A stretch of 64,000 bases of DNA from an uncultured Acidobacteriota bacterium (GCA_963802675.1 CAWDJL010000001.1:4112-68111); one strand, 5' to 3'; positions 801 through 49,069 are shown, counted from the stretch's first letter. Notes: generated by a model not told the origin, from the letters alone. A program made the numbers and translations.

Positions 801-810
801 GTGACGAGGC

Positions 811-1005: not shown

Positions 1006-1164
1006 CGTCGCTGGATGACTGGAATCGGGGTAGAGTGCTCCGGCTTTTATCTAGTCGCAGTGTGCTGAGCCCAGGCCGCAGGTTTTCCGGAAGAGTGCCT
1101 ATCCCTTTGACAAGCGCGACTGGCGGCGGCTGCGCGTGAGGCTTGGCCAAGACGGGGACTGACA

Positions 1165-1635: not shown

Positions 1636-1650
1636 TGAAGGTACGGGGCC

Positions 1651-2493: not shown

Positions 2494-2496
2494 CTC

Positions 2497-3502: not shown

Positions 3503-5140
3503 ATGGAAGCCTCCACACGCACACTGCCCGCGTTGCACTACTTGAACAACGGCCACGGGCTTGCCTCGTGGTTGCTGACGAAGGACCACAAGCGGATCGC
3601 GATCATGTATTTGATCTCGATCTCGGTGTTCTTCTTCATCGGTGGCCTCATGGCGGTCGGTGTTCGCCTGGAGCTGGCGACCCCCGAGGGCGACTTCGTC
3701 CAAGCCGACACCTACAACAAGATGTTCACGCTGCACGGCGTGATCATGGTGTTCCTCTTCCTGATCCCGTCGATTCCGGCCACGCTCGGGAACTTCCTGA
3801 TTCCACTGATGATTGGCGCCAAGGATCTGGCGTTCCCGCGCATCAATCTGCTGAGTCTCTATATCTACTGGTTCGGCGGCCTCTTCATCCTCTACGCGAT
3901 GCTCACGGGCGGTGTGGATACGGGTTGGACGTTCTACACGCCGTACAGCGTGGCGGCCTCGAACACCAGTGTCATTCCGACGGCGCTCGGCGTGTTCATC
4001 GCCGGCTTCTCGTCGATTCTGACTGGCCTGAACTTCATCGTGACCATCCATCGCATGCGCGCGCCGGGCATGACCTGGTTCAGGCTGCCGCTGTTCGTGT
4101 GGGCGCATTACGCCACGAGCCTGATCCAGGTGCTCGGCACGCCGGTCATCGCCATCACCATCCTGATGGTCTTCGTCGAGCGCGCCTTCGGGTTCGCCAT
4201 CTTCGATCCCGCGCGCGGCGGTGACCCCGTCCTCTTCCAGCATCTTTTCTGGTTCTACTCGCACCCGGCGGTCTACATCATGATTGTGCCGGCGCTCGGA
4301 GTGCAGAGCGAGCTCATCGCGAACTTCGCGAAGAAAAAGATCTTCGGCTATAGCTTCGTCGCGTTCTCCAGCCTCGCGATTGCTATGTTTGGCTTCATTG
4401 TCTGGGCCCATCACATGTTCGTGTCGGGCATTTCGGTCTACGCGGCGATGGTGTTTTCGTTCCTGAGCTTCTCGGTTGCGATCCCGTCAGCAGTCAAGCT
4501 GTTCAACTGGACGGCCACCCTCTACAAGGGCGCCATCTCGTTCGAAATGCCGATGCTGTACGCCTACGGCTTCATGGGGCTGTTCGCGATTGGTGGTTTG
4601 ACGGGCCTCTTCCTGGCGACGCTCGGCACCGACATCCACATGCACGACACGTATTTCGTCGTCGCGCACTTCCACTACATCATGGTTGGCGGCTCGATCA
4701 TGGGCTACCTGGGCGGCCTGCATTTCTGGTGGCCGAAGATCACGGGTCGGATGTACTCCGAGTTCCTCTCCCGTATCAGCGCGATTCTGGTGTTCGTTGG
4801 CTTCAACCTGACGTTCTTCCCACAGTTCATCGTTGGCTACCTCGGGATGCCGCGGCGCTATCACGCGTACCCGCCAGAATTCCAGGTGCTCAACGTCATG
4901 TCCTCGGCCGGAGCAACGGTGCTGGGCGTTGGCTACGTGCTGCCGGTGCTGTACTTCCTGTGGTCATTGAAAAGGGGCGAGGTAGCCGGCCCCAACCCGT
5001 GGGCGGCATCGGGTCTGGAATGGGAAACCAGCTCACCACCGCCGACGGAAAACTTTGCCGTCGCGCCGCGCGTGACGACCGAGCCCTACGAATACACACC
5101 GCATGTGGCAAGGGAGATAAGGGAGATGCGGAGTGTCTGA
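3503..5140 (+). CDS. ctaD: Cytochrome c oxidase subunit I (A2 type)
   Basis: [32 protein letters not shown]. Confidence 0.97.
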
Positions 5141-5930
5141 CGCAGCCCGCACCCCAACGCGCATACTACGCGCGTCGGGGACCCCGCTCGCTCACGTCAG
5201 CGCGAGCGGCCGCGCCCACGCGGCTCATCATCCAGCGCTTCAGCATCAGTTCGACTCGTTGTCGCAACAGAAGGAAGCGGCGATTTTGGGGATGTGGGCC
5301 TTCCTGCTCACCGAAATTCTGTTCTTCGGTGGCCTCTTCATGGCCTACATGCTCTACCGGACGTGGTATCACGATGCCTTCGTCATCGCCAGCACGTCGA
5401 TCACGATCGGCTGGGGACTGCTGAACACCATCGTCCTGATCGGCAGTTCCCTGACTATGGCGCTTGCCGTTCGGGCAGCGCAGACCAACAAACGGAAGGC
5501 AACCGTCAACTGGCTGATCTTGACCATGGTATTGGGGATGGTCTTTCTCGGGGTCAAGGTCATCGAGTACGCCGACAAATTCGAGCACCACCACGTGCCT
5601 GGTCCGGACTTCGTCTTCATGGATCCCGCCCATCCGCCGACCTACGACATTGGTCCCCACGGCAAGGAGATCCTGAGTCGGAATTCACCGGAAGAACTGA
5701 ACCGGACAACGCAGATCTTCTTCAGTCTCTACTTCACGATGACGGGGCTGCACGCCCTGCACATGATTATCGGCGTCGGTCTGATGTGCGTGATTACGTG
5801 GATGGCGTGGAAAGGCAAGTTCTCCAGCGAGTGGTATACGCCCGTGGAGATGAGCGGTCTCTACTGGCACTTCGTCGACATCGTCTGGATCTATCTGTTC
5901 CCGCTGCTGTATCTCATCGATCGGTCCTGA
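5133..5930 (+). CDS. ctaE: Cytochrome c oxidase subunit III
   Basis: [34 protein letters not shown]. Confidence 0.95.
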
Positions 5931-31480: not shown

Positions 31481-31796
31481 CCGGCCATGATACTGGCGCG
31501 TCAATCGTGGTCGTCGGAGTGTCATCCAGCAGGTTCGAGGCCTCGCCTGTGCGTTCCTGGCATGAACTGGTGTCACATGACGGCACAGTCTGTGAGCCGT
31601 TTCGGAACATTCGACCTAACTTGTTGAATTCAAAACAGTTTTGTTCGAGCGTCGCGGGGCCGTGCTCCGGGTTGGCACACTCTGATCGAATCGCCCGACC
31701 ACCTCGTTCTTCATAACTACTGATTCCATAGAACTTATCTCCTTGATGAGTTTGAGCACCTGCCTTGCAAGTGTCCGGGGCGATGGACTCACAAAA

Positions 31797-34328: not shown

Positions 34329-35462
34329 ATGGTGAAGTCCCTGATTCTTCAGCAGCGACTCCGTAACCAACGGCTGCTCGGCAATCCCCTCAATACTCCG
34401 GAGGACGTCGTGTCGTGGCTTGGGGCGGTGCAGGCTCAGGATTATTCGGGCGTCAAGTGGGCGCTTGGGTTGCGCGGACGGTCGTTCAGTGACGAGGCCG
34501 TCGATCGTGCGTTCGACGAGGGCCGTATACTCCGGACGCACCTTCTGCGGCCGACCTGGCACTTTGTCGCGCCCGCCGATCTGCGTTCGTTCCTGGCAAT
34601 CTCTGGGCCGAGAGTCCAGGCTTTCAATGGGTACTACTATCGGAAGTTCGAGCTTGAGGCGCGGCATTTCGTGAAGAGCCACGCAGCAATCGAGAAGGCG
34701 CTGCAAGGTCGTCGATTTCTCACGCGGGCAGAGCTTTCTGTCGTGCTCGCCAAGGCGCGAATCGTCGCCCGTGGCACACGTTTGGCCGCCATCGTGATGC
34801 ACGCCGAGCTCGAAGGCCTGATCTGCAGCGGGCCTCGCCGTGGCAAACAGTTCACGTATGCGCTGATGGACGAACGAGTGCCGCGTCGCAAGGTCCTCCC
34901 ACCCGACGAAGCGCTCGCCGAGCTGACCCGGCGGTATTTCCGCAGTCATGGCCCAGCCACCATCAAGGACTTTGTCTGGTGGTCGGGGTTGACGGTTGCG
35001 CAGGCGAAAACGGGAATGGCCGCCATCCAGCCGGCGTTGAGACGTGTTGATGCTGGGGGCTTGTGCTATTGGGTGGTGCCAACAAGCGCGCCTGCGGGAC
35101 CCTCGAAGGCATCGACGACCTACCTGCTCCCGAACTACGACGAATTCTTGATTGCCTACAAGGATCGCGACGAGGTGCTCGCTCACCGTCGGGCTCGGGC
35201 GGATCAGCCACCACCACTGGAGAACTCGCCGCATCACGTCATAGTTGACGGCTTACTGGCCGGAAGCTGGCGTCGCGTGCCACGACCCTCGGCGGTCCAG
35301 ATCGACGTCAATCTGTTCGTTCGCAAGCCATCCGCGCGCCATCAGCGCGAGCTGGCCGCGGCCGGACGACGGCTCTCCACATTTCTCGATCGTCCGGTCA
35401 GGATGGCGACCTCAACTGGACGGCGGCCTCACGGAGAGCGGAGAATCGACGCGCATGGCTAG
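34329..35462 (+). CDS. AlkZ-like (HTH_42) DNA glycosylase family protein
   Basis: GAVQAQD (QxQ), RTHLLRPTWH, YFRSHGPAT..DF.WWSGL, LLPNYDEFL. Confidence 0.85.
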   Translation: MVKSLILQQRLRNQRLLGNPLNTPEDVVSWLGAVQAQDYSGVKWALGLRGRSFSDEAVDRAFDEGRILRTHLLRPTWHFVAPADLRSFLAISGPRVQAFNGYYYRKFELEARHFVKSHAAIEKALQGRRFLTRAELSVVLAKARIVARGTRLAAIVMHAELEGLICSGPRRGKQFTYALMDERVPRRKVLPPDEALAELTRRYFRSHGPATIKDFVWWSGLTVAQAKTGMAAIQPALRRVDAGGLCYWVVPTSAPAGPSKASTTYLLPNYDEFLIAYKDRDEVLAHRRARADQPPPLENSPHHVIVDGLLAGSWRRVPRPSAVQIDVNLFVRKPSARHQRELAAAGRRLSTFLDRPVRMATSTGRRPHGERRIDAHG

Positions 35463-36171
35463 CGTGACTCCCGTTGGTCTTCTCGTCTTCGGCCCTCATC
35501 CCGACGACATCGAGATCGGCATCGGTGGCATCGTCGCGCAGCATACGGCAGCGGGCCACCGAGTCGGCCTTTGCGACCTGACGCAAGGCGAGCTGTCGAG
35601 CAATGGCACACCGCAGCAGCGGCAGCAGGAGGCCGCCGCCGCCGCTCGCGTCCTTGGCGCGGCCTGGCGCGAAAATCTCGGGTGGCCGGATGGTGGCATT
35701 GCGGCATCACCGGAGATGATTCGCTCGGCCGTGGATCTGATTCGGCAGGCGCGACCGCGTGCCGTCGCGATCCCGTACTGGGAGGATCGGCATCCCGATC
35801 ATGGTTCTGCCAGCCGTGTGCTACGAGAAGCGATCTTCAAGAGTGGTCTCAGTCGCTATGAAACCGGTCGGGAGCCGTGGCGACCCGAGTGGACCTGCCA
35901 CTATTTCATCAATGACGGCGCCACGCCGTCGTTTGTGGTTGATGTCTCGGCGGTGTACCAGCGGAAGCGCAAAGCGCTCGATTGCTTTCGAAGCCAGTTC
36001 GCGACCACCGAGGAGAGTTCGGTAGCCACCCGCCTGACGGCCCCCTCGTTCCGGCAGCTGATTGAGAGCCGGGACGCACAGTTTGGTGCGCTGGCAGGCG
36101 TGGCGTTCGCGGAAGGGATCGTCGTACGCGAACCGCTCCTGCGCGCGAATCTCTTCAAAGACAGGCCATGA
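35455..36171 (+). CDS. bshB1: Bacillithiol biosynthesis deacetylase
   Basis: HPDDIE, DLTQGE, DRHPDH, AEG (PIG-L family); adjacent to bshA. Confidence 0.9.
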   Translation: MASVTPVGLLVFGPHPDDIEIGIGGIVAQHTAAGHRVGLCDLTQGELSSNGTPQQRQQEAAAAARVLGAAWRENLGWPDGGIAASPEMIRSAVDLIRQARPRAVAIPYWEDRHPDHGSASRVLREAIFKSGLSRYETGREPWRPEWTCHYFINDGATPSFVVDVSAVYQRKRKALDCFRSQFATTEESSVATRLTAPSFRQLIESRDAQFGALAGVAFAEGIVVREPLLRANLFKDRP

Positions 36172-37307
36172 AGATCGGAATGGTGTGCTATGCGTCGCTC
36201 GGTGGCAGCGGCGTGGTGGCGACCGAACTGGCGCGAGCGTTGGCTGGCCGGGGCCATGAGGTTCACCTCATCAGCAGCGAGCCGCCGTTCCGATGGAAGG
36301 CCGACGTTCCGCGATTGTCGTTCGAGCCAGTAGTCGTTCCGTCGTATCCCCTCTTTCGCGAACCGCAATACCTGCTGGCCCTGGCAAACACGATCGCGCG
36401 CGTCGCAGAGTCGAGGCGGCTGGACATCGTCCATGCCCATTACGCGGTGCCGCACGCGACGGCGGCCTATCTCGCCGATCAGATGCTGATGTCATCAGCG
36501 GGGACGGTCCCGCCCCGGACGATGACGACCCTCCACGGCACGGACATCACGTTGGTTGGCAGCGATCCATCCTACGCACGTGTCGTTGCCTTCTCGATTG
36601 AGCAATCACACGGAGTGACCGCCGTCTCCGAAAGTCTCAAGGCCGACAGCATCGCTGCGGTCGGCGTCCGTAAGCCGATTCGAGTCATTCCGAATTTTCT
36701 CGACTGCTCGGAATACCGCCGACGAGTCGATGAACGGCTGCGGGACGAGCTGTGTCCACCGGGTACGCAGGCCGTGATCGCGCACATGTCGAACTTCAGG
36801 CCGGTGAAACGACTCGATACCGTGCTCGACGTATTTCATCGGCTGCGTCAGAGGGGTGTTGCGGCGCGCCTGCTCCTCATCGGCGATGGTCCGGTGCGAC
36901 CTCAGATCGAGCAAATGGCATCAGCGTACTCGTTGGCCGACGACGTAATCTTTGCGGGAGAGCAGCAGGATCCGGTGCGCTGGCTTTCGGTCGCTGACCT
37001 GTTCCTGCTACCTTCCGCGCAAGAAAGCTTTGGACTCGCCGCGCTCGAAGCCATGGCGTGTGAAGTGCCGGTCATCGCCTCAAACGCAGGGGGGTTGCCC
37101 GAGATCGTCGAGCACGGCGTTACTGGATTCGTCTGCCCAATCGATGCGGCGGGCCAGATGGCCCAGCACGCGTACGATCTGATTGAGGATCAGAGTCGCC
37201 GCGCCGCGATGGGTCGCGCGGCCTCCGAGATGGTCCGTGCGCGCTACTGCGCCGAACGGATCGTTCCGCTCTACGAAAACGCCTACGAAGACGTGCTGCG
37301 CGGCTGA
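36168..37307 (+). CDS. bshA: N-acetyl-alpha-D-glucosaminyl L-malate synthase
   Basis: [47 protein letters not shown]. Confidence 0.93.
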
Positions 37308-38881
37308 CGTTTGGCTGTCCTGCGTTCCAGAAGAGCGCGAAGCGCGGGGTAGTCGACCTTGGCGTTGTGTCGGCGATCGACTGGTATCTCGGGTACGACC
37401 AGGACTTCCGCAAGGTGTGCCCAGGCGAGCTGTCGTTCGAGTCGAGCACTCACTGCAGGGATCTCATCACGCTCGAGTTGGGCTACGAGCACACGCGACC
37501 CCTCGTGTTGAACCAGCGCGCAGCGACGCACTGCTTCCACCGCCATCGCCGCGCATTCGACCGCGAATGGATAGATCACGCCATGCCCGTCGTGGAGCTT
37601 GGCCGATGCGCGGCCAAGCAGCCACAAGCGGCCGGCGCCATCCAGATACCCGGCATCTCCCGTTCGGTGCCACGTCCGATCGCCAACCTTGAACTTCGTT
37701 TCGCTGTCCCCCAGACCTCCGAGATAACCACTCAAGACGTGTTCACCGGCCACGACGATTTCACCAGCGGCGTTCGCGTGAAGCGAGTCGTGTTCGAAGG
37801 CCTCGCTAGTGTAGGGGCCGATGGGTCGGCCCCAGCGGTCGGCAAGGACTCGCAGACCGATCTCGGCAATGGGCTTGCCGACGAGCAGGCCGGCGCCGCC
37901 TTCCATTGCCCGAAGATCCTCCGGTTGGATTTCTTTCCAGGCAATCCGCGCGATTGGCTCTGCTTCCGTCGAGCCGTAGACCGCCACCACAGTTGCCTGG
38001 GGCGCGACTTGTTGCAGCCGACGAAGAAGTCGCGGAAAGACCGGTGCGCCTCCCGTGTAGATCTCCTCGAAAGTCTCGAGCACGTGTCCATGCCACGCCA
38101 CATGGGATGCGAGTCGATCGAGAAGGGCAGGCGATGCGGCAACCCGCGTCGGCTGGGTCAGGCGAATCTGACGAAGGAGCCGAGCGGGCGCGATGTCGCC
38201 CGGCGCCCGAAGATCGGCGTCAGGAATGATGCTTGTCACTGCCGATGCGAGGTTGGCGAGAACAAAAATCGGCAGCGCCGCGAGGTCGCGTTGCCCCGCT
38301 TTCAGGTGCAAATCGTTGGCAAGGACTCGATGTTGTGCGAGCAAAAAGCCGTGCGAGCGAACCGCCGCCTTGGGCTGGCCGGTGCTGCCGCTCGTAAACG
38401 TGATCAACGCCGGCGTGTCGTGGTTCGCCGGTTCAATGGCCGGGTCACCGTTCTCACTGTCGTCGATTCGGAGCGTACGGGCGCCGGGGAGCCATCGTCC
38501 AATGGAAAGACATGCGGGGATGCGTCGGATCGCTCGTGACGCAACCCGTAAAGCATGCGCCCGAGGCACGGCGAGAAACGCTTGGGGAGACACGAGATCG
38601 CAGCATCGTTCGAGCTGCGCCCGTCCGGTCGAGGGATCGAGGAAGACAGCCGTTGCACCGCAGCGCCAGATGCCCACGAGCACCGCATAGAGCGCGACCG
38701 ACATTGGACAGAACACCAGTACGCGATCTCCGGGCTGGATTCGAGCCGCGCGCAGTTGACGACCGATGCCGGCAGCCATTCGATCCAGGCCGAGAAACGT
38801 GACCACCCGGCTGCCCTCGATCAAAGCAGGACGGTCTGCGCTGTCGATCGCCCGTTCTCGCAAGACAGTGGCGATGTTCAT
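37283..38881 (-). CDS. AMP-binding enzyme (acyl-CoA ligase / OleC-like)
   Basis: FTSGSTGQPK, YGSTEAEP, HRTGD, LLGR, C-terminal HNAK. Confidence 0.9.
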   Translation of the reverse strand: MNIATVLRERAIDSADRPALIEGSRVVTFLGLDRMAAGIGRQLRAARIQPGDRVLVFCPMSVALYAVLVGIWRCGATAVFLDPSTGRAQLERCCDLVSPQAFLAVPRAHALRVASRAIRRIPACLSIGRWLPGARTLRIDDSENGDPAIEPANHDTPALITFTSGSTGQPKAAVRSHGFLLAQHRVLANDLHLKAGQRDLAALPIFVLANLASAVTSIIPDADLRAPGDIAPARLLRQIRLTQPTRVAASPALLDRLASHVAWHGHVLETFEEIYTGGAPVFPRLLRRLQQVAPQATVVAVYGSTEAEPIARIAWKEIQPEDLRAMEGGAGLLVGKPIAEIGLRVLADRWGRPIGPYTSEAFEHDSLHANAAGEIVVAGEHVLSGYLGGLGDSETKFKVGDRTWHRTGDAGYLDGAGRLWLLGRASAKLHDGHGVIYPFAVECAAMAVEAVRRCALVQHEGSRVLVAQLERDEIPAVSARLERQLAWAHLAEVLVVPEIPVDRRHNAKVDYPALRALLERRTAKRQPRSTSS

Positions 38882-39891
38882 CCCGGGATTGCGCGGGGGA
38901 ACCGCCGCACGTAAAGAGCGTACCGGCGAATCGTGTGCGCGTAGCGACGGCTGATGTGCCGTGAGACGTTCTGCTCGTGCATCAACGCGTGAATCGCGCG
39001 GCGAAAACCAAGCCGACGGGCTCTTCGCTGCACGAGTCCGACCAGCAGCCCACCAAGTCCGTGACTGGCCATCGTCGGCGCCACCGCCACCGTCTTGATG
39101 ATGAGCGTATCGATCGCGTCGCGGCGCTGGCGTTGAAGGATGTCGGGAATCGCAAAGAGGAAGCCGACCAGCCGAGAGTCGCGTTCTGCCATCAGTACCA
39201 AGTCCGGCACGACGAACGACAGCACCCGACGATTCTGGTCGACGAACTCGTCTTCGCCGATCGGTGAATAGAGATAGTTGGCCTGAAAGCTGTCGAGCGA
39301 CAGGCGAAAGAGCTGCTTCAGCTCGGTCTCGGCATTTGCAGGGTCGAAGGAACGGATCGTGACCCCTTCACTCTGCAGCTTGGCCAAGGTCGTATCCAGC
39401 CGAGGGTCCTCCTTCGTCAGATCGCCGGTGACCGCGGACGTATAGGTCGCCATCACTCGGAACCCGACGCGTTCGAACTGCTCGCGCCACGCATCGGGAT
39501 TGTCCGGCTCGAGGAAGAACGGCGGTTCGCTTCCGCGTTCAGAGACGAAGCGGTAGCGCCTCCAGGTATTGCCATCCATCGGTCCGACCGCGATGGTGCA
39601 TCCTGCGAATTCGAGCAGGTTCAGCGCTTCGCGAAGGATGCTCAAGCCGCTCGATTCGTCATCGGCGGCATAGTGTCCGATCAGCCCGACACGATGCTCA
39701 GGCAACGCCGGCGCGCTCGTCCACCAGCACGACGCGCGCGCCAGCAGCATCTCGCGATCGTCCAGCAACATCAGATGCCGATCGGGACGATGCGCTCGCA
39801 AGTCGTCGCCAACGGGAGGAACCAATGGAGTCCCCGTGACTTGTGGCATCGCGTCGTTGTGTGAGAGCTCAATCACGTGAGGCATGGGCAT
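38878..39891 (-). CDS. GNAT family N-acyltransferase (two GNAT-like domains)
   Basis: GPMDGNTWRRYR, PPFFLEP, IIKTVAV...GLGGLL, HALMHE; overlaps both neighbours. Confidence 0.8.
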   Translation of the reverse strand: MPMPHVIELSHNDAMPQVTGTPLVPPVGDDLRAHRPDRHLMLLDDREMLLARASCWWTSAPALPEHRVGLIGHYAADDESSGLSILREALNLLEFAGCTIAVGPMDGNTWRRYRFVSERGSEPPFFLEPDNPDAWREQFERVGFRVMATYTSAVTGDLTKEDPRLDTTLAKLQSEGVTIRSFDPANAETELKQLFRLSLDSFQANYLYSPIGEDEFVDQNRRVLSFVVPDLVLMAERDSRLVGFLFAIPDILQRQRRDAIDTLIIKTVAVAPTMASHGLGGLLVGLVQRRARRLGFRRAIHALMHEQNVSRHISRRYAHTIRRYALYVRRFPRAIPG

Positions 39892-41252
39892 TACCTCCAG
39901 CGATCCAAGCCAGTCATCCCAAGCCAGCCGACGAGTGAGGCGCCGGAGGCACAAAGGGTCTGACGCACCCAGCGCGCACGGGTCTGCGGGGCATCTCGAA
40001 TCGCCGGCTCACCAAGCGCGAAGAGCACGACGCCGACGACCACGGCCACGCCTCCCCAGAGGGCGAGCACGGCCCCGCGGGCCGTCAACGCCGTGGTCGC
40101 CAGGAACGGCAGCATCAGCATCATCCAGCTGCGGAGCACCGCCCCGACAGCCAGCCCCTGGAGTGGACGCGTCGGTTGGCTGTGCGCCGTGCGACTCAAG
40201 CTGAAGATGGCAACGTGCGTGGCAAACACGAGAGTGAATGGATACAGCAACGCCGGCTGTCGAAGCCACCGTGCGAGCGCGAGCCATGCAATCGCGGCTG
40301 CCCAGATCGACAGCATCGTGCCGGTGGTGTGAAAGCGACGGCCATCGCCTGGGGCGTCTGGTGAATACAGCGAGAAACCCAGGAAGCCAATCGCCGGCGG
40401 GACGATCCATCGCCATCCCGCCAGTGCCCAGGTCACGTAACACAGGAAAGCCCCGACCAGGAGCGAATCATCCAGCATGGTGGTCGAGCGCCGCGAGACT
40501 AAGACGACCAGAACCAATATGGACGTGACCACGAAGCGCCGGAGGAGCTCATCGGATCCGAGGGGAAGGTAGGCTTGCAGCAAGAAGAAGCCGCCGATCG
40601 GGATGAAGAGATTGTCCAAACCGCGCCACGCGCTGCCTTCGAGCAGCATGACCAGCAGCGCCATCGTCAGTGAGATCAAGAGCGTTTCGGAGCGGCCGAT
40701 TGTGCTCCACACCAGCAATGGGATGTGAATGCAGAAGAACGCGACAACGAGGAAGGCGACCGACCCCTCCACGCTCTTGCTGGCGCCTTCGAAGCGGGTG
40801 TGCCCATACCGCAGCCCGACGAGAGCCCCGGTCGCATCGGCCAATGTCAGCACGAGGATCGGTATGCAGAACAACAAGGCCGACCGCCCAAGAGACAGCG
40901 CGAAGACGATCGCAACCGAGATCGGGAAGTAGATTTCGCCGAGGGTCGTGCGAGAGACGCCGTCCACTACGGCCCCCAGCGGTCTTCGCAAGGGCTTGAT
41001 GAACTTCACCGCGGCAATCAGCGTAGCGCTGCCTGCCGTCAGCAGCAAAACTGGCCACAGTCGGTCGAACAGAAACGGAAACGACAGCGTCAACAACCCT
41101 GAACCGGCGTGCAAGAGTTTTCGAGGCAACTCCGGATGCGGACTATATCGACGTTGAAACCAGCGCAGCAGACCCAGCAGCGTCAGGAAGGCAGCCATGA
41201 AGCCCGCAACGGCCAGCCACGGCCGCCCGACGACAGGGCTGCCGCCGATCAG
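39891..41252 (-). CDS. Polyprenol/phytol kinase-like (CTP_transf_1 superfamily) membrane protein; start uncertain (41252 or ATG 41198)
   Basis: RKLLH, GEIYFP, ADATGALVG, KSVEGS, GLDNL; extra C-terminal TM region. Confidence 0.8.
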   Translation of the reverse strand: MIGGSPVVGRPWLAVAGFMAAFLTLLGLLRWFQRRYSPHPELPRKLLHAGSGLLTLSFPFLFDRLWPVLLLTAGSATLIAAVKFIKPLRRPLGAVVDGVSRTTLGEIYFPISVAIVFALSLGRSALLFCIPILVLTLADATGALVGLRYGHTRFEGASKSVEGSVAFLVVAFFCIHIPLLVWSTIGRSETLLISLTMALLVMLLEGSAWRGLDNLFIPIGGFFLLQAYLPLGSDELLRRFVVTSILVLVVLVSRRSTTMLDDSLLVGAFLCYVTWALAGWRWIVPPAIGFLGFSLYSPDAPGDGRRFHTTGTMLSIWAAAIAWLALARWLRQPALLYPFTLVFATHVAIFSLSRTAHSQPTRPLQGLAVGAVLRSWMMLMLPFLATTALTARGAVLALWGGVAVVVGVVLFALGEPAIRDAPQTRARWVRQTLCASGASLVGWLGMTGLDRWR

Positions 41253-42346
41253 ATGACCTCCTCGACGATGAACGCACTGTAGAAGAAGGCCTTGTCGGCC
41301 AGGTGCAGCCGTTCGCCGAGGTCGTTCAACGGCGCAAGCCGTGCGGCCATGGACTGCGGCCGGCTGCGCGGCGCCAGCATGTTCCAATACGCCAGTCGTG
41401 CGTGCGGCCGGCTCGCCGCGGCGAGCGTCTCGAGCATGCGGTGATAGTGGTCCATCGAGACGTATTCGAACAGGTCGCTCAGATTGTAGCGATCGATCGC
41501 GCCTGGGCCGACCCCGCTGGCGAACTCCTCGATCGATTGGCAACGCCGTTCGAGACGGTCGAGATTGCCGCGGATCTTCTCGAAGTGTTCCGGGCGCAGG
41601 TAGAGCGGCAGGGCATTGCCGTGATGACCCGTCAGAATCCAATGAAGATACGGATTGACACCAGGGTCCAGCTCAATCAACGCATGGCGTGTGCGGGCGA
41701 GGATGCGCGAGGACACGTCCCCGGTGACGTAACGAAAGAACTCGGGATCGCGGCCCAGACGTCCCATGGCCGTCCGCGAGAAGAACACGCGAAACAGCGA
41801 GCGCCAGCGCCAGGTGTTCCAGGTGTCTTCATAGAACCGCTCGCGACCCGCGCGATCGCGCGGCGTGAGAAGGTCCAGCACTCGTCGCCGCGAATGGACC
41901 AGGGGCAGCACGCGATTGCGAAACAGCGCGAAATAGCGCTCGAACTTCCCGGCGCTTCCGGCGCCACCGGCGATCGCATCAGGTCGTGAGTCCCAGAATC
42001 GGCGACTTTCGTCGGGCAGCATCGTCCGACAGCGGGAATACAGCGCCGTTCGACGAGACGAGGGCCGCGATCCGATCAGTTCGAGCAACTCTCGATGGGA
42101 GAGCGCGCGAAACGCCGCGACCCTGAGATCGAGGCAGGCAAGCTGCGCCGGGCTGAGATCGAGGGCGACCACGCGCGCGGGATCGCGCGTGAGCATGGCC
42201 AGTGCGTTATCGCCTGCAGAGGCGATCGAGACGCACACATCTCCCGCCCGTATGTTCAATGCGTCGAGCAGAACGTCGGCGTCCTCCCAGACCTGGGCGT
42301 AGCGAATTTCGGTAAAGCCTGCGCGGGTGGCGACCTCGCTACGCAC
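41249..42346 (-). CDS. DUF3419 / BtaA-like SAM-dependent transferase
   Basis: YAQVWED, IASAGDNA, DLSPAQ, GKFERYF, LSDLFEY. Confidence 0.82.
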   Translation of the reverse strand: MRSEVATRAGFTEIRYAQVWEDADVLLDALNIRAGDVCVSIASAGDNALAMLTRDPARVVALDLSPAQLACLDLRVAAFRALSHRELLELIGSRPSSRRTALYSRCRTMLPDESRRFWDSRPDAIAGGAGSAGKFERYFALFRNRVLPLVHSRRRVLDLLTPRDRAGRERFYEDTWNTWRWRSLFRVFFSRTAMGRLGRDPEFFRYVTGDVSSRILARTRHALIELDPGVNPYLHWILTGHHGNALPLYLRPEHFEKIRGNLDRLERRCQSIEEFASGVGPGAIDRYNLSDLFEYVSMDHYHRMLETLAAASRPHARLAYWNMLAPRSRPQSMAARLAPLNDLGERLHLADKAFFYSAFIVEEVI

Positions 42347-45017
42347 GGGAGGCCTCGTCCCCTGAGGCGAGCTTGCGAACGATTCCGGTGCTTCCGTCGA
42401 GTTCCACCAGGTCGCCGTCAGCGAGCCAGCTGGTGACGCCGGGCACGGAGACGATGGCGGGAATGCCGAGCTCGCGAGCCACGATCGCCGCATGAGAAAG
42501 AAGGCTCCCGCGCTCGACCAGGATACCGAGTGCGGACGGGAAGATCAGAATCCAGCCGGGATCGGTGTGCTGGGCAACGAGCACCGATCCGTGGTCGAGC
42601 TCGACATTCCGAGGATCGGCGACCACGCGAACCTTGCCGCGGACGACTCCAGGGCAGCACCCGAGACCGCGTCGCTCGTCGCCCTCGGCGATCGCCACTT
42701 GAACCGGCGCGGCAAACGACTGCGCGTGGTAGACCATCCCCCGGGTTTCGAACCGATCATCAGGGGCCGGCATTTCCTTGTATCGATCGAACTCTCGGCG
42801 TCGAATCGACACCAAGTCACGAAGCGCCGTCGTCGTCGCGCGTCCTTCGACGAAGGCCAGCGCTTCGTCAACCTCGAGATAGAAGATGTCGCGAGGGTTT
42901 TCAAGGAGGTTCAGTGCAGTCAGCCGGCGGCCTAGTTCGAGAAAAATGCGACGCACTCGACCAAAGAGCCGGGTTCGCTCGAGCCGCAGGTTCTCGCGAT
43001 CGCGCACACGCGCCCGGGCATGACGAAGCACCCAGTTGAAGACGAAACGCCTGATCGGACGTCCCGATAGCGCGCTTTTCACCCGTGAATCGGCAGCCGC
43101 GCGCAGGGCATCGCCCGAAACGGGAGTCGTCCCGTGTGAAGCGCCTGCGTGCGCGTCACCCTGCTGGGCGAGACGACCCACCGCTCGAAGCAGCGGCAAC
43201 GGATCGTCGTGAAGGGTCTCGGTCTCGAGCTTGAGCTCGTTGACCGATCGCTCGCCAAACTTGTCCAGGTACGCTCGATACTCTGTCGCGAAAGCATCTC
43301 GAGTAGTCAGCGCTGTTTCGATGTCCGCTGGCGATCCGGTCGCGAGAAGCCTCACGAAACCCTCATCGACCCGCGCGAGAGCCGCCAACCGGGTCAATCG
43401 CAGCGCGGGTTCCGCACTGACCAGGCCGCCTTGCCCGCTAATCAGATCGTTCTGCAGTGTTCCTTCTCGATCGCCACACCAGGACTGCGTCAGCTTTCGG
43501 AGAACGCCATAAAAGATCATGGCGAAGAAATCGTTGACGAGAGGCGCATCCCAGTGCAGCAGAAGACGGTCGCGCAGATCCCGGTAGTGAGCAACGAGCT
43601 CGTCAGGCAAGCGCCCGCCGAGTGGCGGAGCAGGCGGTGCCAATGCATCGTCGAGCCGTTGGTAGAACTCGCGTACGCGCGAATCGATCGTGAAGTGCTG
43701 AAGAAGCAGCCCGAACAAACTATTGGCAACGTAAACCCAGTCGGAAAGCCGGCTGCTGGAACGCTGCCGGACGATATCTTCGGCGAGCGCGTCAGGCAAT
43801 CCAACTGTGACGCCCATCATCTGCTCCATGAACTGGCGATTGATCGCGAACCCTGGCAGCAAGGCCAGCACGCGATACCAGTTGAGCAGGTTGTAGTACA
43901 AGCGGCCGCGGACGAGTCCCAGCAGATTGCGGAACGTCTGATCATGCCGCGCGACTTCTCGTCGGGGCACGCGCATCATCACGCAAAACTGCCGGTACAC
44001 GTGCTCATAGATCTCCGACGCAAACGAGAACGTCATGGGCGTGGTCACGCCGCTGTAGCTTTCGACGATGTTGCTGTTGTCCCAGATGATGGGTGTGCCG
44101 TCGGGATCGGACTGTTGGGCGAGCGACGTGATGGGCCGTGACTGGAGAAGATACACGCGCCGATCGTCGAAAGCCCATTCGATGTCTTGCGGTCGGCCGA
44201 AGTGACCTTCGGCGCGTCGCGCCAGAGCCGCCACCTCGATCACCTGCTGGTCGGAAAGGGCGGGTTGCGCGGCGAGGTCATCAGGAATTGGTGCCGCACG
44301 TACGCCTTCGGGATGTGTCTCATCGCGCCGGTGACCAGCTCGTTTCGTGACGATGCTCCGCGAAATGATCGCGCCTGTCCGATCGATATGCCAGGTGTCA
44401 GCGTCGCATTCGCCGGAAACGAGGCCCGTGCCAAGGCCAAGCGCTGCGCTCACAACCGCCACGCTGCGGCGGCCGCTCACGGGATCCGCGCTGAAGGCGA
44501 CCCCGGAAACCGTTGATCCGACCATGCGCTGCACGAGAACCGCCGGCGGGTGCGGAAGAACTGTCAGCCCGTGTTGCTGACGGTAGGCGAGCAGGCGGCC
44601 GCTGAAGCCGGATCGCCAGACGGCCGCGACTCGCTCCGCGACGTGCTCCCGTTGAACGAACAGGTACGACTCGAGCTGGCCTGCGAAGGAGTGATCGACG
44701 CCGTCTTCGTCACTGGCCGACGATCGCACCGCGACCGGCGACCCATCCGGACACAGTTCGGCCAGCGCATCCAACACCGCGGTTCGCACGTCAGACGTCG
44801 GCGTGACACTCGCGACGATGGCGGCAACCTGCGCTGCATCGACCGAACGCGTAAGGCGCGACGAATCGGCGCCAAGTGAGGCCCAGAAGGCGTCAGGCGA
44901 GACGACGAACCAATGCGGTACCGGGAGACCGGCTCGTGCGAGCGCACCGAGGGCGCGCGCCTTTCCGCCCAGAAGCGAAGCCGCCGGGAGCTCCTCGGGC
45001 CGAAGAATGAATTTCAC
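42339..45017 (-). CDS. PEP-synthase / rifampin phosphotransferase-like dikinase
   Basis: ATP-grasp GGKA, VRSSASDED..SFAGQ, DIEW, QSRPIT; large central domain; C-terminal phospho-His SHAAIVARELGIP. Confidence 0.88.
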   Translation of the reverse strand: MKFILRPEELPAASLLGGKARALGALARAGLPVPHWFVVSPDAFWASLGADSSRLTRSVDAAQVAAIVASVTPTSDVRTAVLDALAELCPDGSPVAVRSSASDEDGVDHSFAGQLESYLFVQREHVAERVAAVWRSGFSGRLLAYRQQHGLTVLPHPPAVLVQRMVGSTVSGVAFSADPVSGRRSVAVVSAALGLGTGLVSGECDADTWHIDRTGAIISRSIVTKRAGHRRDETHPEGVRAAPIPDDLAAQPALSDQQVIEVAALARRAEGHFGRPQDIEWAFDDRRVYLLQSRPITSLAQQSDPDGTPIIWDNSNIVESYSGVTTPMTFSFASEIYEHVYRQFCVMMRVPRREVARHDQTFRNLLGLVRGRLYYNLLNWYRVLALLPGFAINRQFMEQMMGVTVGLPDALAEDIVRQRSSSRLSDWVYVANSLFGLLLQHFTIDSRVREFYQRLDDALAPPAPPLGGRLPDELVAHYRDLRDRLLLHWDAPLVNDFFAMIFYGVLRKLTQSWCGDREGTLQNDLISGQGGLVSAEPALRLTRLAALARVDEGFVRLLATGSPADIETALTTRDAFATEYRAYLDKFGERSVNELKLETETLHDDPLPLLRAVGRLAQQGDAHAGASHGTTPVSGDALRAAADSRVKSALSGRPIRRFVFNWVLRHARARVRDRENLRLERTRLFGRVRRIFLELGRRLTALNLLENPRDIFYLEVDEALAFVEGRATTTALRDLVSIRRREFDRYKEMPAPDDRFETRGMVYHAQSFAAPVQVAIAEGDERRGLGCCPGVVRGKVRVVADPRNVELDHGSVLVAQHTDPGWILIFPSALGILVERGSLLSHAAIVARELGIPAIVSVPGVTSWLADGDLVELDGSTGIVRKLASGDEASRA

Positions 45018-45081
45018 AACGTTAGACCGTTATGCGGCCCGAAACGAGAATTTTGTACCCGTTGTGAATCCGCATAGCGGT

Positions 45082-46077
45082 CTAGAGGCGCGCGGAGCGC
45101 GCCAAAACCAACAACGTCAACCAGCCAAGGGCGAACTTGAAGGGCATATCAAGGGCAGCGCCCTTGGCTGGTTGCGCACCCAGCAACGCTGGGAGAGCAC
45201 CGAGGCTCAAGTACATCAACAACGTCCAGATTCCGGATGTGATCTCGATGGTCTTTCCAGCACCCCTCCCCGGTCGGCGGAGAAATCGGACGCTGGCAAT
45301 GACGCATCCTCCGACGAGCAGTACAAGGATGCCGACCACGGGACGTTCGAACTGGATCCGCATCGCCGCTTGCCATGCGACCAGCGCGGTCACGACGATG
45401 GCGGCGACCCAGAGCGTGATGGCAGTGGTCCGGCCCCACAGCGCGCTGTAGGTTTCCACTCCCCGTTCTTCGTCCTGCGGCGCGCGAATCTTCCGACCCA
45501 GCTCCACGACGATGCCGTTGAAGTAGCTGACGATGAGAAACCAGTAGAGGCCTCCAGGCGGCCACAGTCGCCCAGCAATCCGCCAGTCACAGGCCGTAGC
45601 GTAGAGATCGATGAGCGGGATGATCGCCATGTGGCTCGCAAGGTAGATGGACGGCCGCGCCTTCAGCCAGTCGGGAACGAAAAACTCGCGCGACATCAAC
45701 GCGAGATACAACCAGGCGAGGATCAGCAGCCACACGAGCCATGCATTGAGCCAGACCGCCAAGGCGAGCTGAACCAGGGCTGCCCCGATGCCGATCCAAC
45801 CGAGCTCACGCAGCGACACCAGACCGCGCGGCACGGCCCGGTACGGACGAAAGCGCGCATCGTCTTCGTAGTCTTTGAACTCGTCGCTGATCCGCAACTG
45901 TAAGAAGAACAGCAGCGCGGTGATGAAGGCGACGAGCAGCGGTCGCACGGCAGGAAGTCCTGCTTCCCCTCGCACGAGTCGCGAATAACATACGGCCGAC
46001 GCGCTGAATGCCGCCACCAGTGGGGCATGAGCCAACAGCGGAAATCGCTCGCGCTGGTACGTGATCCAGCGGTTCAC
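45082..46077 (-). CDS. UbiA family prenyltransferase-like membrane protein
   Basis: Asp-rich RISDEFKDYEDD, RAVPRG, about 8 TM helices, ELGRK..ETYS. Confidence 0.75.
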   Translation of the reverse strand: MNRWITYQRERFPLLAHAPLVAAFSASAVCYSRLVRGEAGLPAVRPLLVAFITALLFFLQLRISDEFKDYEDDARFRPYRAVPRGLVSLRELGWIGIGAALVQLALAVWLNAWLVWLLILAWLYLALMSREFFVPDWLKARPSIYLASHMAIIPLIDLYATACDWRIAGRLWPPGGLYWFLIVSYFNGIVVELGRKIRAPQDEERGVETYSALWGRTTAITLWVAAIVVTALVAWQAAMRIQFERPVVGILVLLVGGCVIASVRFLRRPGRGAGKTIEITSGIWTLLMYLSLGALPALLGAQPAKGAALDMPFKFALGWLTLLVLARSARL

Positions 46078-47369
46078 GAAGAAGCGCTCTTGTGAGCCGG
46101 ATCCGCCGTGCCGCGTGACAGCCGGCGATGGGCATCGGTGAAGTGGCCAGCCGCTAGCGCCCCGGTGATCGACAGCTCACCCGCGAGCGCAACCGCGGCC
46201 GTCACTTCAGCCAGCGCCCGGGCGTGTCCGGCGCCAGCCAGCCCCATGATTTCGAGACACGCACGCTGCGTGGGAAGTCCCGTCCCGCCGCCGACGGTTC
46301 CGACAATCAGGTTTGGCAGCGTGACCGATGCGTAGAGGCCGCCGTCCTCGAGGGGCTCGAAGCGTGTGACGCCGACCGCCGCCTCGGCCACGCACGCCGC
46401 ATCCTGACCGGTCGCAATAAACAGTGCCGCGAGGCCATTGGCGTAGTGACCTTGTACGCCGATGCTGCCGCTCATGACGCCGCCCAACGCGGACATCCGC
46501 CAGTAATCCATCAAGCGATCCGTTGTCGTATGCAGCCGCGAGGTCACGAGGGACGTTGAAAGACGCACTTCCGCCGTCACCTTGCGTCCGCGAACGGTTG
46601 TAAAGGAGTGAGTCGTGGCCTTCTTGTCTCCGGAGAGGTTGGCCTCCACGAAGTGATAGCGGGGCTGAGTCGGCGCGCTCGACGCGATGTACTGACAGAT
46701 CGCGTCAGTGGCAATCGTGACCATGTTCTGGCCCGAGGCATCGCCGGTCGTGAACTCGAAGCCGAGGTAAACGTGATTACCCTCCAGCGTAATCTGCAAG
46801 TCAATCAGCCGTCCGTATCGCGTGGTCTCGCTCGCGATGCGGCGGAAAGTCTCCATCTGCGTGGTTGCCCACCCGACGAACAGCGCGGCGTCCACAATCG
46901 AGTCGAACGCAAAGCCTGGTGCGCGGCTGACGCCCTCGTTGAGCAGGAGCGCCGTGCAGCCGCCGGCCTCGGTGATCAGACGGGCTCCTCGTGAATGGGA
47001 GGCGATGAGTGCCGCCTCGGTGGTCGCCAGCGGCACGTAGTAGTCGCCATTCGCGTGCAACCCGTTGACGCGAATCGGGCCGATGAGCCCAATCGGGACA
47101 CGAGCGGCGCCAATGAAGTTCTCGATGTTTCGCGCATAGACCTGCGCCTCGGCCGCAGTGCGGTCGTCGAGCAGGGCTGCGCGCACCGATGGTGGGACTG
47201 TCGGCACCCGCCAGCGACTATCGATTGCCTCAGCCGTCAAATCATTACCGCTCGGCACGCGAGGCGGTGCGGGCCCGTGATGCGGCTTGAGCTTGGCGAT
47301 CTCTTCCGGTGGCTTCGTCGCCACCGTGTCTCGGAGGAAGTCAGCAACGCGACGGTAATCGGTAGCCAT
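46074..47369 (-). CDS. hmgA: Class I HMG-CoA reductase
   Basis: IENFIG, TTEAAL, GDASGQNM, NLSGDKK, TGQD, GTVGGGT, C-terminal catalytic His. Confidence 0.9.
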   Translation of the reverse strand: MATDYRRVADFLRDTVATKPPEEIAKLKPHHGPAPPRVPSGNDLTAEAIDSRWRVPTVPPSVRAALLDDRTAAEAQVYARNIENFIGAARVPIGLIGPIRVNGLHANGDYYVPLATTEAALIASHSRGARLITEAGGCTALLLNEGVSRAPGFAFDSIVDAALFVGWATTQMETFRRIASETTRYGRLIDLQITLEGNHVYLGFEFTTGDASGQNMVTIATDAICQYIASSAPTQPRYHFVEANLSGDKKATTHSFTTVRGRKVTAEVRLSTSLVTSRLHTTTDRLMDYWRMSALGGVMSGSIGVQGHYANGLAALFIATGQDAACVAEAAVGVTRFEPLEDGGLYASVTLPNLIVGTVGGGTGLPTQRACLEIMGLAGAGHARALAEVTAAVALAGELSITGALAAGHFTDAHRRLSRGTADPAHKSASS

Positions 47370-47491
47370 AGCTGAACGTTGCCGCTCATTGTAGCCACGG
47401 TTCTGCCAGGAGGTCGTCTGAGTAATTCGGATTAGTTGTGAGACTGCGCATCGCGACGCAAGGCGTCGTATGCTTGCAGCGCGAGACTGCC

Positions 47492-49069
47492 ATGAGGGTG
47501 CTTCTCCTCTCGATGCCCGACTCCTTCGAGCACACTCCGGTGCTGGCCATGCGGATGCCAAACGGCGCGCTTGCCTCGCTGGCGGGTAACGTCGATCGGC
47601 ATCATCAGGTCGCCATCGCCGATCTCGTGCTGGTCCAACAGGCAGTCGCGAGGACGGTCGAACGGCTGATGCACGAGATTCGACCCGACCTGGTCGGGCT
47701 GTCGGTGATGACCTTCCAGCGGCGGACCGCGTTCAAGCTCATCCGCTTGATGCGGCACATCAAGCCGGATGTGCAGATCGTTGCCGGCGGCTACGACCCG
47801 AGCCTGGCGCCCGACGCCTATGAAGCGCCGTCGGCCGGTGTCGACTTTGTGGTACGCGGGGAAGGTGATCTGACGTTCCGTGACCTGCTTCGACACCTCG
47901 AACGCGAATCCACGGTGGACACCGTGCCTCTCATACCAGGCTTGTCCATCAGGCGCGGCGCCGGTTTCGTCCACGGTCCGCCGCGTCACGTCAGTCGATT
48001 GGAGGATGGCTCAATCGCGCCGCCTCGTCGCGACGCCCGCGTCTTGTCGGGCTACACGTTTCTCGGCCGACCCGTCGATGTCGTGGAAACGTCGCGCGGC
48101 TGTACCTACGACTGTAGTTTCTGTTCGATCATCGAAATGCGCGGCCGCAACTTTCACACGCTGACGTTTGACCGCGTGCTCGCGGATATCAGCGATGCAC
48201 GCCGACGTGGTGCGCGTGCGATCTTCCTCGTCGACGACAATCTGACGTTGAACGTGGCACGGTTTGAGGCGCTCTGTCGAGCCATCATCGATGCCCGCCT
48301 CAACGACATTCACTTCATCGTTCAGGCCATGACGTCAGCGATTGCGAATCACGGAGAACGCCTCGCGCCCTTGATGCGGAAGGCAGGATTCCGTTACGTG
48401 TTTCTCGGGATTGAAAACATCATCGAGGACGACCTCGCCTTTCTCAAGGCGTCCGCCAAGAACGCACGGCGCGAAGCGGGTCGGCGCACCGGCAATGCCA
48501 CGATTCGTGCCATCGACCTGCTGCACCGCTCGCGCCTGTACGTCGTGGGCGGCATCATCGTGGGCAATCCAGACGATACCAGCGAGGCGGTTGAGAAGAA
48601 TCTGGCGTTTGCCCGTCGATACGTGGACTGGCCCTACATACAGCATCCGACACCGTATCCTGGCACTCCGATGACGAAGGACTTCGAGCGACGACAGCTG
48701 ATCGTCAACCGTCAGCTCGAGGAATACGACGGCACAACCGCCGTCGTGCGGACCGAACATCTCTCCGCCGATGACATCGAATTCATGCGGTGGCGTGCCG
48801 AACGCTGGATGAAGTTGCGGCACGTTCCTGCCGTCATGCGCGCGTACCCTGGGTTTGTTCTGAACCATGGTCGTCGCATGCTGGCCCATACCTTCCGGGG
48901 CAGCTCGTGGCGATCGGCGCTCGGCCTCGAGGACCAACGAACCGTCTTTGCGCGATACAAGGCGATTCGGCGGGCGGAACGCGAGTATTTGACCCCGTCG
49001 TCTTCGGTTGGCACGCCACGGCCCGGTTACACGGCAGATTGGCGTGCCGCCGACGCACCAGGTGAGTAG
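47492..49069 (+). CDS. B12-binding radical SAM protein
   Basis: N-terminal cobalamin domain (DLVGLS..GGY), ETSRGCTYDCSFC, VDDN, TPYPGT. Confidence 0.9.
   Translation: MRVLLLSMPDSFEHTPVLAMRMPNGALASLAGNVDRHHQVAIADLVLVQQAVARTVERLMHEIRPDLVGLSVMTFQRRTAFKLIRLMRHIKPDVQIVAGGYDPSLAPDAYEAPSAGVDFVVRGEGDLTFRDLLRHLERESTVDTVPLIPGLSIRRGAGFVHGPPRHVSRLEDGSIAPPRRDARVLSGYTFLGRPVDVVETSRGCTYDCSFCSIIEMRGRNFHTLTFDRVLADISDARRRGARAIFLVDDNLTLNVARFEALCRAIIDARLNDIHFIVQAMTSAIANHGERLAPLMRKAGFRYVFLGIENIIEDDLAFLKASAKNARREAGRRTGNATIRAIDLLHRSRLYVVGGIIVGNPDDTSEAVEKNLAFARRYVDWPYIQHPTPYPGTPMTKDFERRQLIVNRQLEEYDGTTAVVRTEHLSADDIEFMRWRAERWMKLRHVPAVMRAYPGFVLNHGRRMLAHTFRGSSWRSALGLEDQRTVFARYKAIRRAEREYLTPSSSVGTPRPGYTADWRAADAPGE

Follow-up and report, generated by a model that had tools for sequence, protein, structure and literature searches.

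In the salvage of phytol and other prenols by plants and cyanobacteria, the alcohol is phosphorylated by phytol kinase (VTE5) and then by phytyl-phosphate kinase (VTE6/DUF92), before use by a UbiA-type enzyme, VTE2 or chlorophyll synthase. In a branch of fungal siderophore biosynthesis (SidI, SidH, and SidF), mevalonate derived from 3-hydroxy-3-methylglutaryl-CoA (HMG-CoA) reductase (HMGR) is activated by an adenylate-forming (ANL) enzyme, the mevalonyl-CoA ligase SidI, and is then transferred to an amine by a GNAT-fold enzyme, the N-acyltransferase SidF. OleC acts on β-hydroxy acids, a class including mevalonate. To our knowledge, no clear role has so far been assigned to class I HMGRs of bacteria using the methylerythritol phosphate (MEP) route to isoprenoids. 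The subject of this study is a cassette of seven co-oriented open reading frames (ORFs; g1 to g7; minus strand, positions 37283-47369, ~10 kb) in a 64,000-nucleotide stretch of DNA (GCA_963802675.1 CAWDJL010000001.1:4112-68111; the window) from an uncultured Acidobacteriota bacterium (the host). These genes encode HMGR (g1), a UbiA-superfamily prenyltransferase (g2), a dikinase (g3), a DUF3419 protein (g4), a polytopic membrane protein (g5), a GNAT acyltransferase (g6), and an ANL enzyme (g7), and the cassette is probably a self-contained, horizontally mobile operon for a membrane-associated amphiphile not yet described.

When species-representative genomes were scanned with a g5 alignment, 24 loci were obtained, all titled Acidobacteriota or Vicinamibacterales: 19 contained the seven genes in the same order, and the other five, cut by contig ends, carried the matching part. 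A scan of metagenome contigs with a more diverse g5 alignment gave 80 loci that were kept, and the seven genes were in order in 18 of the 20 with room for the whole cassette; the exceptions were L066, with g5 beside a cytochrome P450 (P450) and a GH3-family ligase, and L086. In L096 and L111, all seven genes were present in a rearranged order. HMGR lay next to UbiA in each of the 26 metagenome loci in which more than 1.4 kb was available upstream of UbiA. Full cassettes in the same order were also found in a plasmid collection, from Brevibacillus laterosporus B9 (Bacillota), the proteins of which were 37-60% identical to those of the host over the aligned parts (g5 over the N-terminal half only), and from a Roseinatronobacter sp. 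S2 plasmid of 137 kb (Alphaproteobacteria), annotated as UbiA, PEP/pyruvate-binding, DUF3419, hypothetical, hypothetical, and AMP-binding, with HMGR spanning the record origin. Since the order was kept in 19/24 genome loci, 18/20 roomy metagenome loci, and two records of other phyla, the arrangement is far beyond chance, and the seven genes very probably function as one biosynthetic unit. A first-pass annotation of the window, made from the sequence alone, had proposed synteny as a test of this operon, and the cassette was indeed conserved across Acidobacteriota, Bacillota, and Alphaproteobacteria. When 111 flanking ORFs (17 metagenome loci) were scanned with Pfam, no eighth gene recurred, and the flanks in the window (radical SAM, β-lactamase-fold, GT4, PIG-L, and AlkZ-like genes) recurred only in the four closest of the 24 loci.

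The ORFs were all present on the minus strand where the first-pass annotation had placed them (Table 1), and its four overlapping junctions read exactly as claimed: GTGA common to the g1 stop and g2 start (46074-46077); an 8-nt overlap, GTGCGTAG, between the g3 stop and the g4 GTG start (42339-42346); TAATG at 39891, preceded by GGAGG, common to the g5 stop and g6 start; and ATGA common to the g6 stop and g7 start (38878-38881). Gaps of ~64 and ~50 nt separated g2 from g3 and g4 from g5, respectively. Third-position G+C was 0.67-0.77 across all seven genes, and the G+C of the cassette region equalled that of the rest of the window. A promoter/terminator scan of the cassette was uninformative either way (0 promoter-like sites; 7 terminator-like sites vs 8.1 expected). 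Metatranscriptome contigs from three libraries (two studies) covered pieces of all seven genes with 90-99% likeness and bridged three junctions, a weak hint of expression because these contigs came from relatives and such libraries can hold DNA; stretches left uncovered carry no meaning. Pfam upheld the family labels previously given to six of the genes, but not "polyprenol kinase" for g5, which had no Pfam or NCBIfam match.

Table 1. Positions in the window and predicted products of the seven cassette genes.
Gene	Predicted product	Length (aa)	Position	Strand	Basis
g1	Class I HMG-CoA reductase	431	46074-47369	minus	PF00368
g2	UbiA-superfamily membrane prenyltransferase	331	45082-46077	minus	PF01040
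g3	ATP-grasp + substrate domain + swivel-His dikinase	892	42339-45017	minus	PPDK_N + PEP-utilizers
g4	DUF3419 (BtaA-family, SAM-dependent transferase-like); GTG start	365	41249-42346	minus	PF11899
g5	Polytopic membrane protein	435	39891-41198	minus	Remote homology + source names
g6	Tandem-repeat GNAT acyltransferase	337	38878-39891	minus	PF00583 + predicted fold
g7	Adenylate-forming (ANL) enzyme	532	37283-38881	minus	PF00501

g1 matched PF00368 over profile positions 23-368 of 368 (373.7 bits; cut-off, 27), scored under the cut-off of NCBIfam TIGR00533 (328.4 vs 441.8 bits), and had the archaeal HMGR 6hr7 as its best solved relative (294 bits). E118, R149, D248, K249, K250, H308, N311, D323, and H414 were invariant in an alignment of 23 HMGRs (20 cassette and three non-cassette acidobacterial sequences), and we take these to be the catalytic (human E559/K691/D767/H866) and HMG-binding positions of the enzyme. 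The residues presumed from the human enzyme to bind the carboxylate and hydroxyl groups of HMG (R149, K250, R/K262, H308, and N311) showed no difference between HMGRs from cassettes and those from elsewhere. Cassette HMGRs were mutually 55-70% identical across phyla, vs 44% to the unlinked HMGR of another acidobacterium. In the host genome (98% complete), g1 was the sole HMGR; Dxr of the MEP pathway was found, while there was no match to the HMG-CoA synthase C-domain (PF08540) or diphosphomevalonate decarboxylase (TIGR01240), and the best score for mevalonate kinase (TIGR00549) was 70.5 bits vs a cut-off of 163. g1 is an orphan HMGR with intact catalytic residues in a MEP-pathway host without the rest of the mevalonate pathway. 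Because the catalytic and HMG-binding positions were invariant and the best solved match was an archaeal HMGR, g1 is predicted to make mevalonate for the cassette, and this is more likely than reduction of the g7 product. In another acidobacterial genome (L032; G115:C2:2825096-2829202), the orphan HMGR was unlinked, carried an additional HMG-CoA_red_N domain, and had an atypical kinase of the ABC1/UbiB type as the next gene, and this type of pair was found in acidobacteria also without mevalonate kinase and HMG-CoA synthase.

g2 matched PF01040 (59.5 bits; cut-off, 34.2), and fitted none of the named UbiA subfamilies tested (digeranylgeranylglyceryl phosphate (DGGGP) synthase, chlorophyll synthase, and PRK13592): 91 bits vs a cut-off of 443 for the best NCBIfam model (NF010118), 17.6-22.9 vs 296-353 for the DGGGP synthase models, and ~23 vs 212-313 for ChlG/BchG. 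In a weak match to the DGGGP synthase 6m31, D65, D69, and D73 aligned to the Asp-rich motif with a one-residue offset. g3 consisted of PPDK_N (residues 14-304; 220.5 bits) and PEP-utilizers (the mobile His domain, 808-878; 84.3 bits), and carried the SHAAI context of the phospho-carrier His. This subfamily is labeled "phosphoenolpyruvate synthase" by NCBI annotation; phosphoenolpyruvate (PEP) synthase and pyruvate phosphate dikinase were ruled out by the absence of PEP-utilizers_C (the PEP/pyruvate-binding TIM barrel) in the Pfam scan and by a score of 253 bits vs a cut-off of 739.75 on TIGR01418. The score on NF004881 was 814.5 bits (cut-off, 883), and those on the Rph, PigC, and RedH equivalogs were 296 vs 999, 307 vs 1300, and 344 vs 1350 bits, respectively. 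The best solved relatives were rifampin phosphotransferases (5fbs/5hv1; 208 bits in two stretches), and the ESM Atlas clusters nearest to the middle part (305-790) carried Rph_4th (score of 0.96; a lead only). By its sequence, g3 is a small-molecule dikinase with the rifampin-phosphotransferase/PigC architecture, not PEP synthase, which refines the "dikinase" of the first-pass annotation. A match to g3 on a Streptomyces durmitorensis plasmid (31% identity) was rejected because the gene belongs to another type of cluster, containing AfsA-like, P450, and KAS III genes.

g4 matched PF11899, the Pfam family including BtaA (219.6 bits; cut-off, 28.2), and was the only DUF3419 protein in the host genome. 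The transfer of 3-amino-3-carboxypropyl from S-adenosylmethionine (SAM) is the only activity known to us in this family. g4 was 49-60% identical to the cassette copies of other phyla. Within the host's order, DUF3419 passed the cut-off in nine of 151 genomes: two besides the host scored 224-242 bits (host copy, 219), and both carried the full cassette; five contained another DUF3419 subfamily (~385 bits), one member of which (genome G514) was compared and was 26% identical to g4. This G514 protein, located outside any cassette with a GT4 glycosyltransferase neighbor (L122; G514:C1:6300600-6309700, 3984-5177, minus strand), was considered as a within-order BtaA reference, and provided no anchor because it had no methyltransferase neighbor. 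No methyltransferase domain was detected by Pfam among the seven cassette proteins, and no search for BtaB extended to other parts of the genome.

g5 and 57 relatives had no match to PF01148 (CTP_transf_1). Relatives of g5 are named "phytol kinase" or "diacylglycerol/polyprenol kinase family protein" in public sources, and a phytol-kinase cluster of the ESM Atlas matched g5 with a score of 0.86. In an alignment of 57 sequences, the 18 invariant residues all fell within the first 200 residues, in the N-domain (~1-210), and the C-domain (~215-435) was poorly conserved. By hhalign, the N-domain matched that of a 455-aa kinase-DUF92 fusion in the same genome (probabilities of 90.7% and 94.8%); this signal was obtained with the broader g5 alignment (A2), and the narrow one (A1) gave nothing. 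The C-domain gave no hhalign signal against the DUF92 part of this paralogue (one DUF92 sequence), while four of 55 g5 relatives had co-linear DUF92 hits (residues ~239-338, profile 2-120) of 14-23 bits, under the cut-off of 27.5. g5 may, as judged from these alignments, be a kinase-DUF92 fusion with a decayed second half, and the label "polyprenol kinase" rests on source names and remote homology. The fusion (ORF 1450-2817, minus strand; DUF92, 99 bits) directly adjoined a second UbiA gene (433-1383, minus strand; 134 bits) in L034 (G000:C13:611319-614969). The phytyl-phosphate kinase VTE6 belongs to the DUF92 family, and this two-gene module resembles a pair for prenol salvage and is the closest analogue of g5 and g2 within the host genome; g2 and the second UbiA had no significant BLASTP similarity. 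The g5 family comprised 506 representative clusters at E<1e-30, and members were recorded from a gammaproteobacterial metagenome-assembled genome (MAG) and an Obscuribacterales MAG, with Atlas clusters labeled Planctomycetota, Verrucomicrobiota, and Gemmatimonadota. The codons upstream of the g5 ATG (41199-41248, minus strand) encode RPWLAVAGF, which agrees with the N-terminal sequence PWLAIA.. conserved in longer homologues. Because there was no in-frame ATG, GTG, or TTG after the g4 stop, the real start of g5 may be non-canonical, or its N-terminus may be truncated.

Some loci contained P450 or sulfotransferase genes near g4 and g5, g5 alone, or the cassette: sulfotransferase, P450, major facilitator superfamily (MFS) transporter, DUF3419, and g5 genes in this order in L086 (4663-11299), a P450 and sulfotransferase pair abutting a complete cassette in L071 (1305-3721), and a P450 gene preceding a lone g5 in L066 (8497-11299). 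A second, related pathway may be built on the g4/g5 pair.

g6 matched PF00583 (Acetyltransf_1) with ~26 bits (cut-off, 20.7). Its AlphaFold model (pLDDT of 91.5) had the tandem GNAT 7q3a as the best Foldseek match (E of 2e-15; TM of 0.60), followed by the clostridial glucosamine N-acetyltransferase 5kf1, mycothiol synthase (1ozp/2c27), and 2wpw, with a resemblance to MAB_4324. The predicted structure has the tandem GNAT fold of enzymes which N-acylate small-molecule amines. g7 matched PF00501 (170.7 bits), and its nearest model was that of the uncharacterized PRK09274 family (NF006754; 372.5 bits vs a cut-off of 478). Scores on the models of the β-lactone synthetase OleC (219.6 and 208.3 bits) were far under the cut-offs (900 and 850, respectively), but higher than that on a long-chain acyl-CoA ligase model (150.4 bits).

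These assignments may be combined into one pathway, which we propose tentatively: the product would be a prenyl-anchored and N-acylated amphiphile with a SAM-derived amino-acid (homoserine-type) head, and mevalonate would be its dedicated building block. HMG-CoA would be reduced to mevalonate by g1, not as an isoprenoid precursor. A hydrophobic alcohol would be phosphorylated by g5, acting as a lipid-alcohol kinase of the CTP type, and by g3, acting as an ATP dikinase of the rifampin-phosphotransferase type, probably in two steps giving a diphosphate; this proposal is modeled on phytol salvage (VTE5/VTE6) and on the host's kinase-DUF92-UbiA module. The lipid group would then be transferred by g2 to an oxygen of the acceptor, and g4 would add 3-amino-3-carboxypropyl from SAM to a free hydroxyl group, creating an amine. 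Among the seven cassette genes, only the family of g4 is known to create an amine, and, for this reason, g4 would be the supplier for g6. A carboxylic acid would be adenylated by g7, with mevalonate or another β-hydroxy acid as the most attractive candidate because g7 is OleC-like and mevalonate is a β-hydroxy acid, and g6 would place the activated acyl group on the amine. The amino-acid-headed, prenyl-linked, N-acylated membrane product of the first-pass annotation therefore survives as the most economical reading, strengthened by the kinase-DUF92-UbiA paralogue module and the tandem-GNAT fold of g6. A more specific version, which probably goes too far, is a new lipid class with a prenyl or alkyl anchor and a homoserine-type head, the amine of which is acylated with mevalonate by the OleC-like ligase and tandem GNAT; g3 would then be the first lipid-acting dikinase of the rifampin-phosphotransferase type. 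If true, a mevalonate-acylated lipid would explain the "orphan" archaeal-type HMGRs of MEP-only bacteria.

Several points weigh against this pathway. All of its chemical steps are inferred from families, and the product is a prediction from genes. UbiA enzymes normally need allylic diphosphates; the host makes these by the MEP route, and two extra kinases are left unexplained. g5 matched no curated kinase model, and its AlphaFold model (pLDDT of 71.4) had no PDB match by Foldseek at E<=0.001 (best, MurJ/MATE; TM of 0.13-0.18). The earlier label "BtaA" for g4 held at the level of the DUF3419 family, but the identity was only 21-33% to 14 non-cassette plasmid DUF3419/BtaA-family hits, rhizobial ones included (23% to one annotated "BtaA family protein"), and the cassette had no BtaB-type gene; because of this low identity, g4 could be a methyltransferase or have another activity. 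Since DUF3419 and g5 occurred without the other five genes in L086, beside P450, sulfotransferase, and MFS transporter genes, the function of the g4/g5 pair may be separable from the proposed scheme. Furthermore, no HMGR was found anywhere in G251, a complete-looking but fragmented genome (470 contigs) with the cassette, and G115, G232, and G302 had a rearranged six-gene cassette (GNAT, ligase, UbiA, dikinase, DUF3419, and g5) with HMGR unlinked elsewhere; HMGR may for this reason not be strictly required. None of these four genomes had mevalonate kinase above the cut-off or HMG-CoA synthase.

The same enzymes may instead make an exported secondary or signaling metabolite, not a membrane lipid, which overlaps with the scheme above and to which we give a minor but appreciable chance. 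The occurrence of the cassette was rare and patchy: g5 was found in 6/401 sampled Acidobacteriota genomes, in 0/2 of the same genus, and in 0/12 of the same family. Integrase, transposase, recombinase, or relaxase genes adjoined the cassette in L071, L077, L091, and L101, and one copy was on a plasmid. This distribution, which points to an accessory trait spread horizontally, would suit an exported metabolite, as would the prodigiosin ligases PigC and RedH among the nearest relatives of g3. On the other hand, the Pfam scan of the flanks revealed no transporter conserved with the cassette, polytopic membrane enzymes account for two of the seven proteins, and lipid genes (PLD-like, monogalactosyldiacylglycerol (MGDG) synthase, PlsC-type acyltransferase, and MMPL) neighbored it in L087, L091, and L119.

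The family chemistry listed in the first-pass annotation may be read as a different order of the enzymes: an acyl-CoA formed by the AMP-ligase would undergo four-electron reduction by the HMGR-like enzyme to a primary (possibly allylic) alcohol, be converted by the two kinases to a diphosphate, and be used by UbiA, with DUF3419 and GNAT decorating the product. We consider this order improbable. It gives a role to every gene, accounts for two kinases beside UbiA in a host already making prenyl diphosphates, agrees with the alcohol-diphosphate-UbiA logic of the kinase-DUF92 and UbiA paralogues in this genome, and is compatible with a host in which the rest of the mevalonate pathway was not found. 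However, g1 retained the residues presumed from the human enzyme to bind HMG, which did not differ between cassette and non-cassette HMGRs; g7, the last gene of the operon, was translationally coupled to g6 (ATGA), not to g1, and stayed with GNAT, not with HMGR, in rearranged cassettes (L026 and L111); and HMGR was unlinked or not found for some cassettes. HMGR with intact motifs was correctly recognized by this annotation; its model is weakest at the reduction of the ligase product.

A non-canonical pathway converting mevalonate into an isoprenoid diphosphate for use by UbiA, with g3 and g5 replacing the GHMP kinases and the OleC-like g7 replacing the decarboxylase via a CO2-losing β-lactone, appears highly improbable. 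HMGR, two kinases, and an enzyme of the β-lactone-synthetase clade formally sum to isopentenyl diphosphate, and no GHMP-type lower pathway was found in the host, but the host has the MEP route and no HMG-CoA synthase was found, the polytopic membrane protein g5 is ill-suited to soluble mevalonate, and DUF3419 and the tandem GNAT would have no role despite being as conserved as the other genes. Chance juxtaposition or a drug-resistance island of a rifampin-phosphotransferase-like kinase and an acetyltransferase is scarcely credible: although g3 has the architecture of rifampin phosphotransferase and GNATs include aminoglycoside acetyltransferases (Eis was among the weaker fold matches of g6), the seven-gene order was kept across three phyla and in 18/20 roomy metagenome loci, g3 fell far short of the Rph equivalog, and an island leaves no place for HMGR, UbiA, DUF3419, or g5.

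A B12-binding radical SAM gene (47489-49069, plus strand) is divergent from g1 at a distance of ~120 nt, and was left out of the unit because it was kept beside the cassette only in L002, L003, L004, and L020; an unrelated radical SAM gene was located upstream of the cassette in L060. A PIG-L deacetylase and GT4 glycosyltransferase pair (35245-37307, plus strand), similar to BshB/BshA of the bacillithiol/mycothiol type, is convergent with g7, and the GT4 gene and g7 share 25 nt (37283-37307) at their 3' ends. A large signaling protein with HD-GYP-type HD, GAF, and GGDEF domains (31743-34268, plus strand) is encoded upstream of the AlkZ-like gene and has no relation to the cassette.

Every enzyme family of the cassette is known, and their combination matches no characterized pathway that was found; the cassette fell outside the mevalonate pathway, diacylglyceryltrimethylhomoserine (DGTS) synthesis, PEP synthase, named UbiA enzymes, and the Rph, PigC, and OleC equivalogs. 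The full-text literature, as covered without supplements and subscription journals, yielded no description of the gene set, in agreement with the first-pass annotation, which knew of no characterized pathway. The passages on HMG-CoA reductase and UbiA in the Lipocone preprint (10.1101/2025.01.14.632903) describe other neighborhoods, and the relevant passage of PMC7923214 merely lists a DUF3419 neighbor. There is a real chance that the cassette yields a new lipid class. An orphan HMGR locked in a phylum-crossing seven-gene operon is placed in a testable context, and the cassette provides the first genomic partners for four poorly understood families: the large g5 family, a distinct DUF3419 subfamily, a g3-like dikinase subfamily, and PRK09274 ligases. 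The carriers include abundant, hard-to-culture soil Acidobacteria, and also B. laterosporus and Roseinatronobacter; since the latter two are culturable, the product is discoverable by ordinary genetics and lipidomics. A new class of amino-lipid or prenyl-lipid, if true, would be relevant to membrane biology, soil lipid biomarkers, and enzyme discovery.

Among the known systems, phytol salvage resembles the cassette in bringing together a membrane CTP-type alcohol-kinase-like domain (g5), a second phosphotransferase, and UbiA, a likeness extended by the host kinase-DUF92 fusion adjoining UbiA and the faint DUF92 signal in some g5 relatives. However, the C-domain of the cassette g5 has lost nearly all invariant residues, the candidate for the second phosphotransferase is a soluble dikinase of the rifampin-phosphotransferase type instead of DUF92, and HMGR, DUF3419, the tandem GNAT, and the ANL ligase have no counterpart. 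The synthesis of the betaine lipid DGTS by BtaA and BtaB shares the Pfam family of g4 and the proposed transfer of 3-amino-3-carboxypropyl to a lipid hydroxyl group; GNAT in place of a BtaB-type N-methyltransferase implies N-acylation, not N-methylation, and g4 is distant in sequence from the BtaA-family plasmid hits outside cassettes, as described above. Rifampin phosphotransferase and PigC/RedH have the same domain order as g3 (ATP-grasp, substrate domain, and swivel-His) and the SHAAI context, whereas g3 scored far under each equivalog cut-off and lacks an antibiotic or pyrrole context. OleC of the OleABCD system is closer to g7 by score than the fatty-acyl-CoA ligase models are, but g7 was far under the OleC cut-offs, and OleA, OleB, and OleD are absent from the cassette. 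The SidI/SidH/SidF branch differs in that the cassette has no enoyl-CoA hydratase, hydroxyornithine, or nonribosomal peptide synthetase genes, and g6, a tandem GNAT, belongs to another family; the likeness of SidI/SidF to the proposed pathway, in which mevalonate would also serve as an acyl building block, is one of logic, not of compared sequence.

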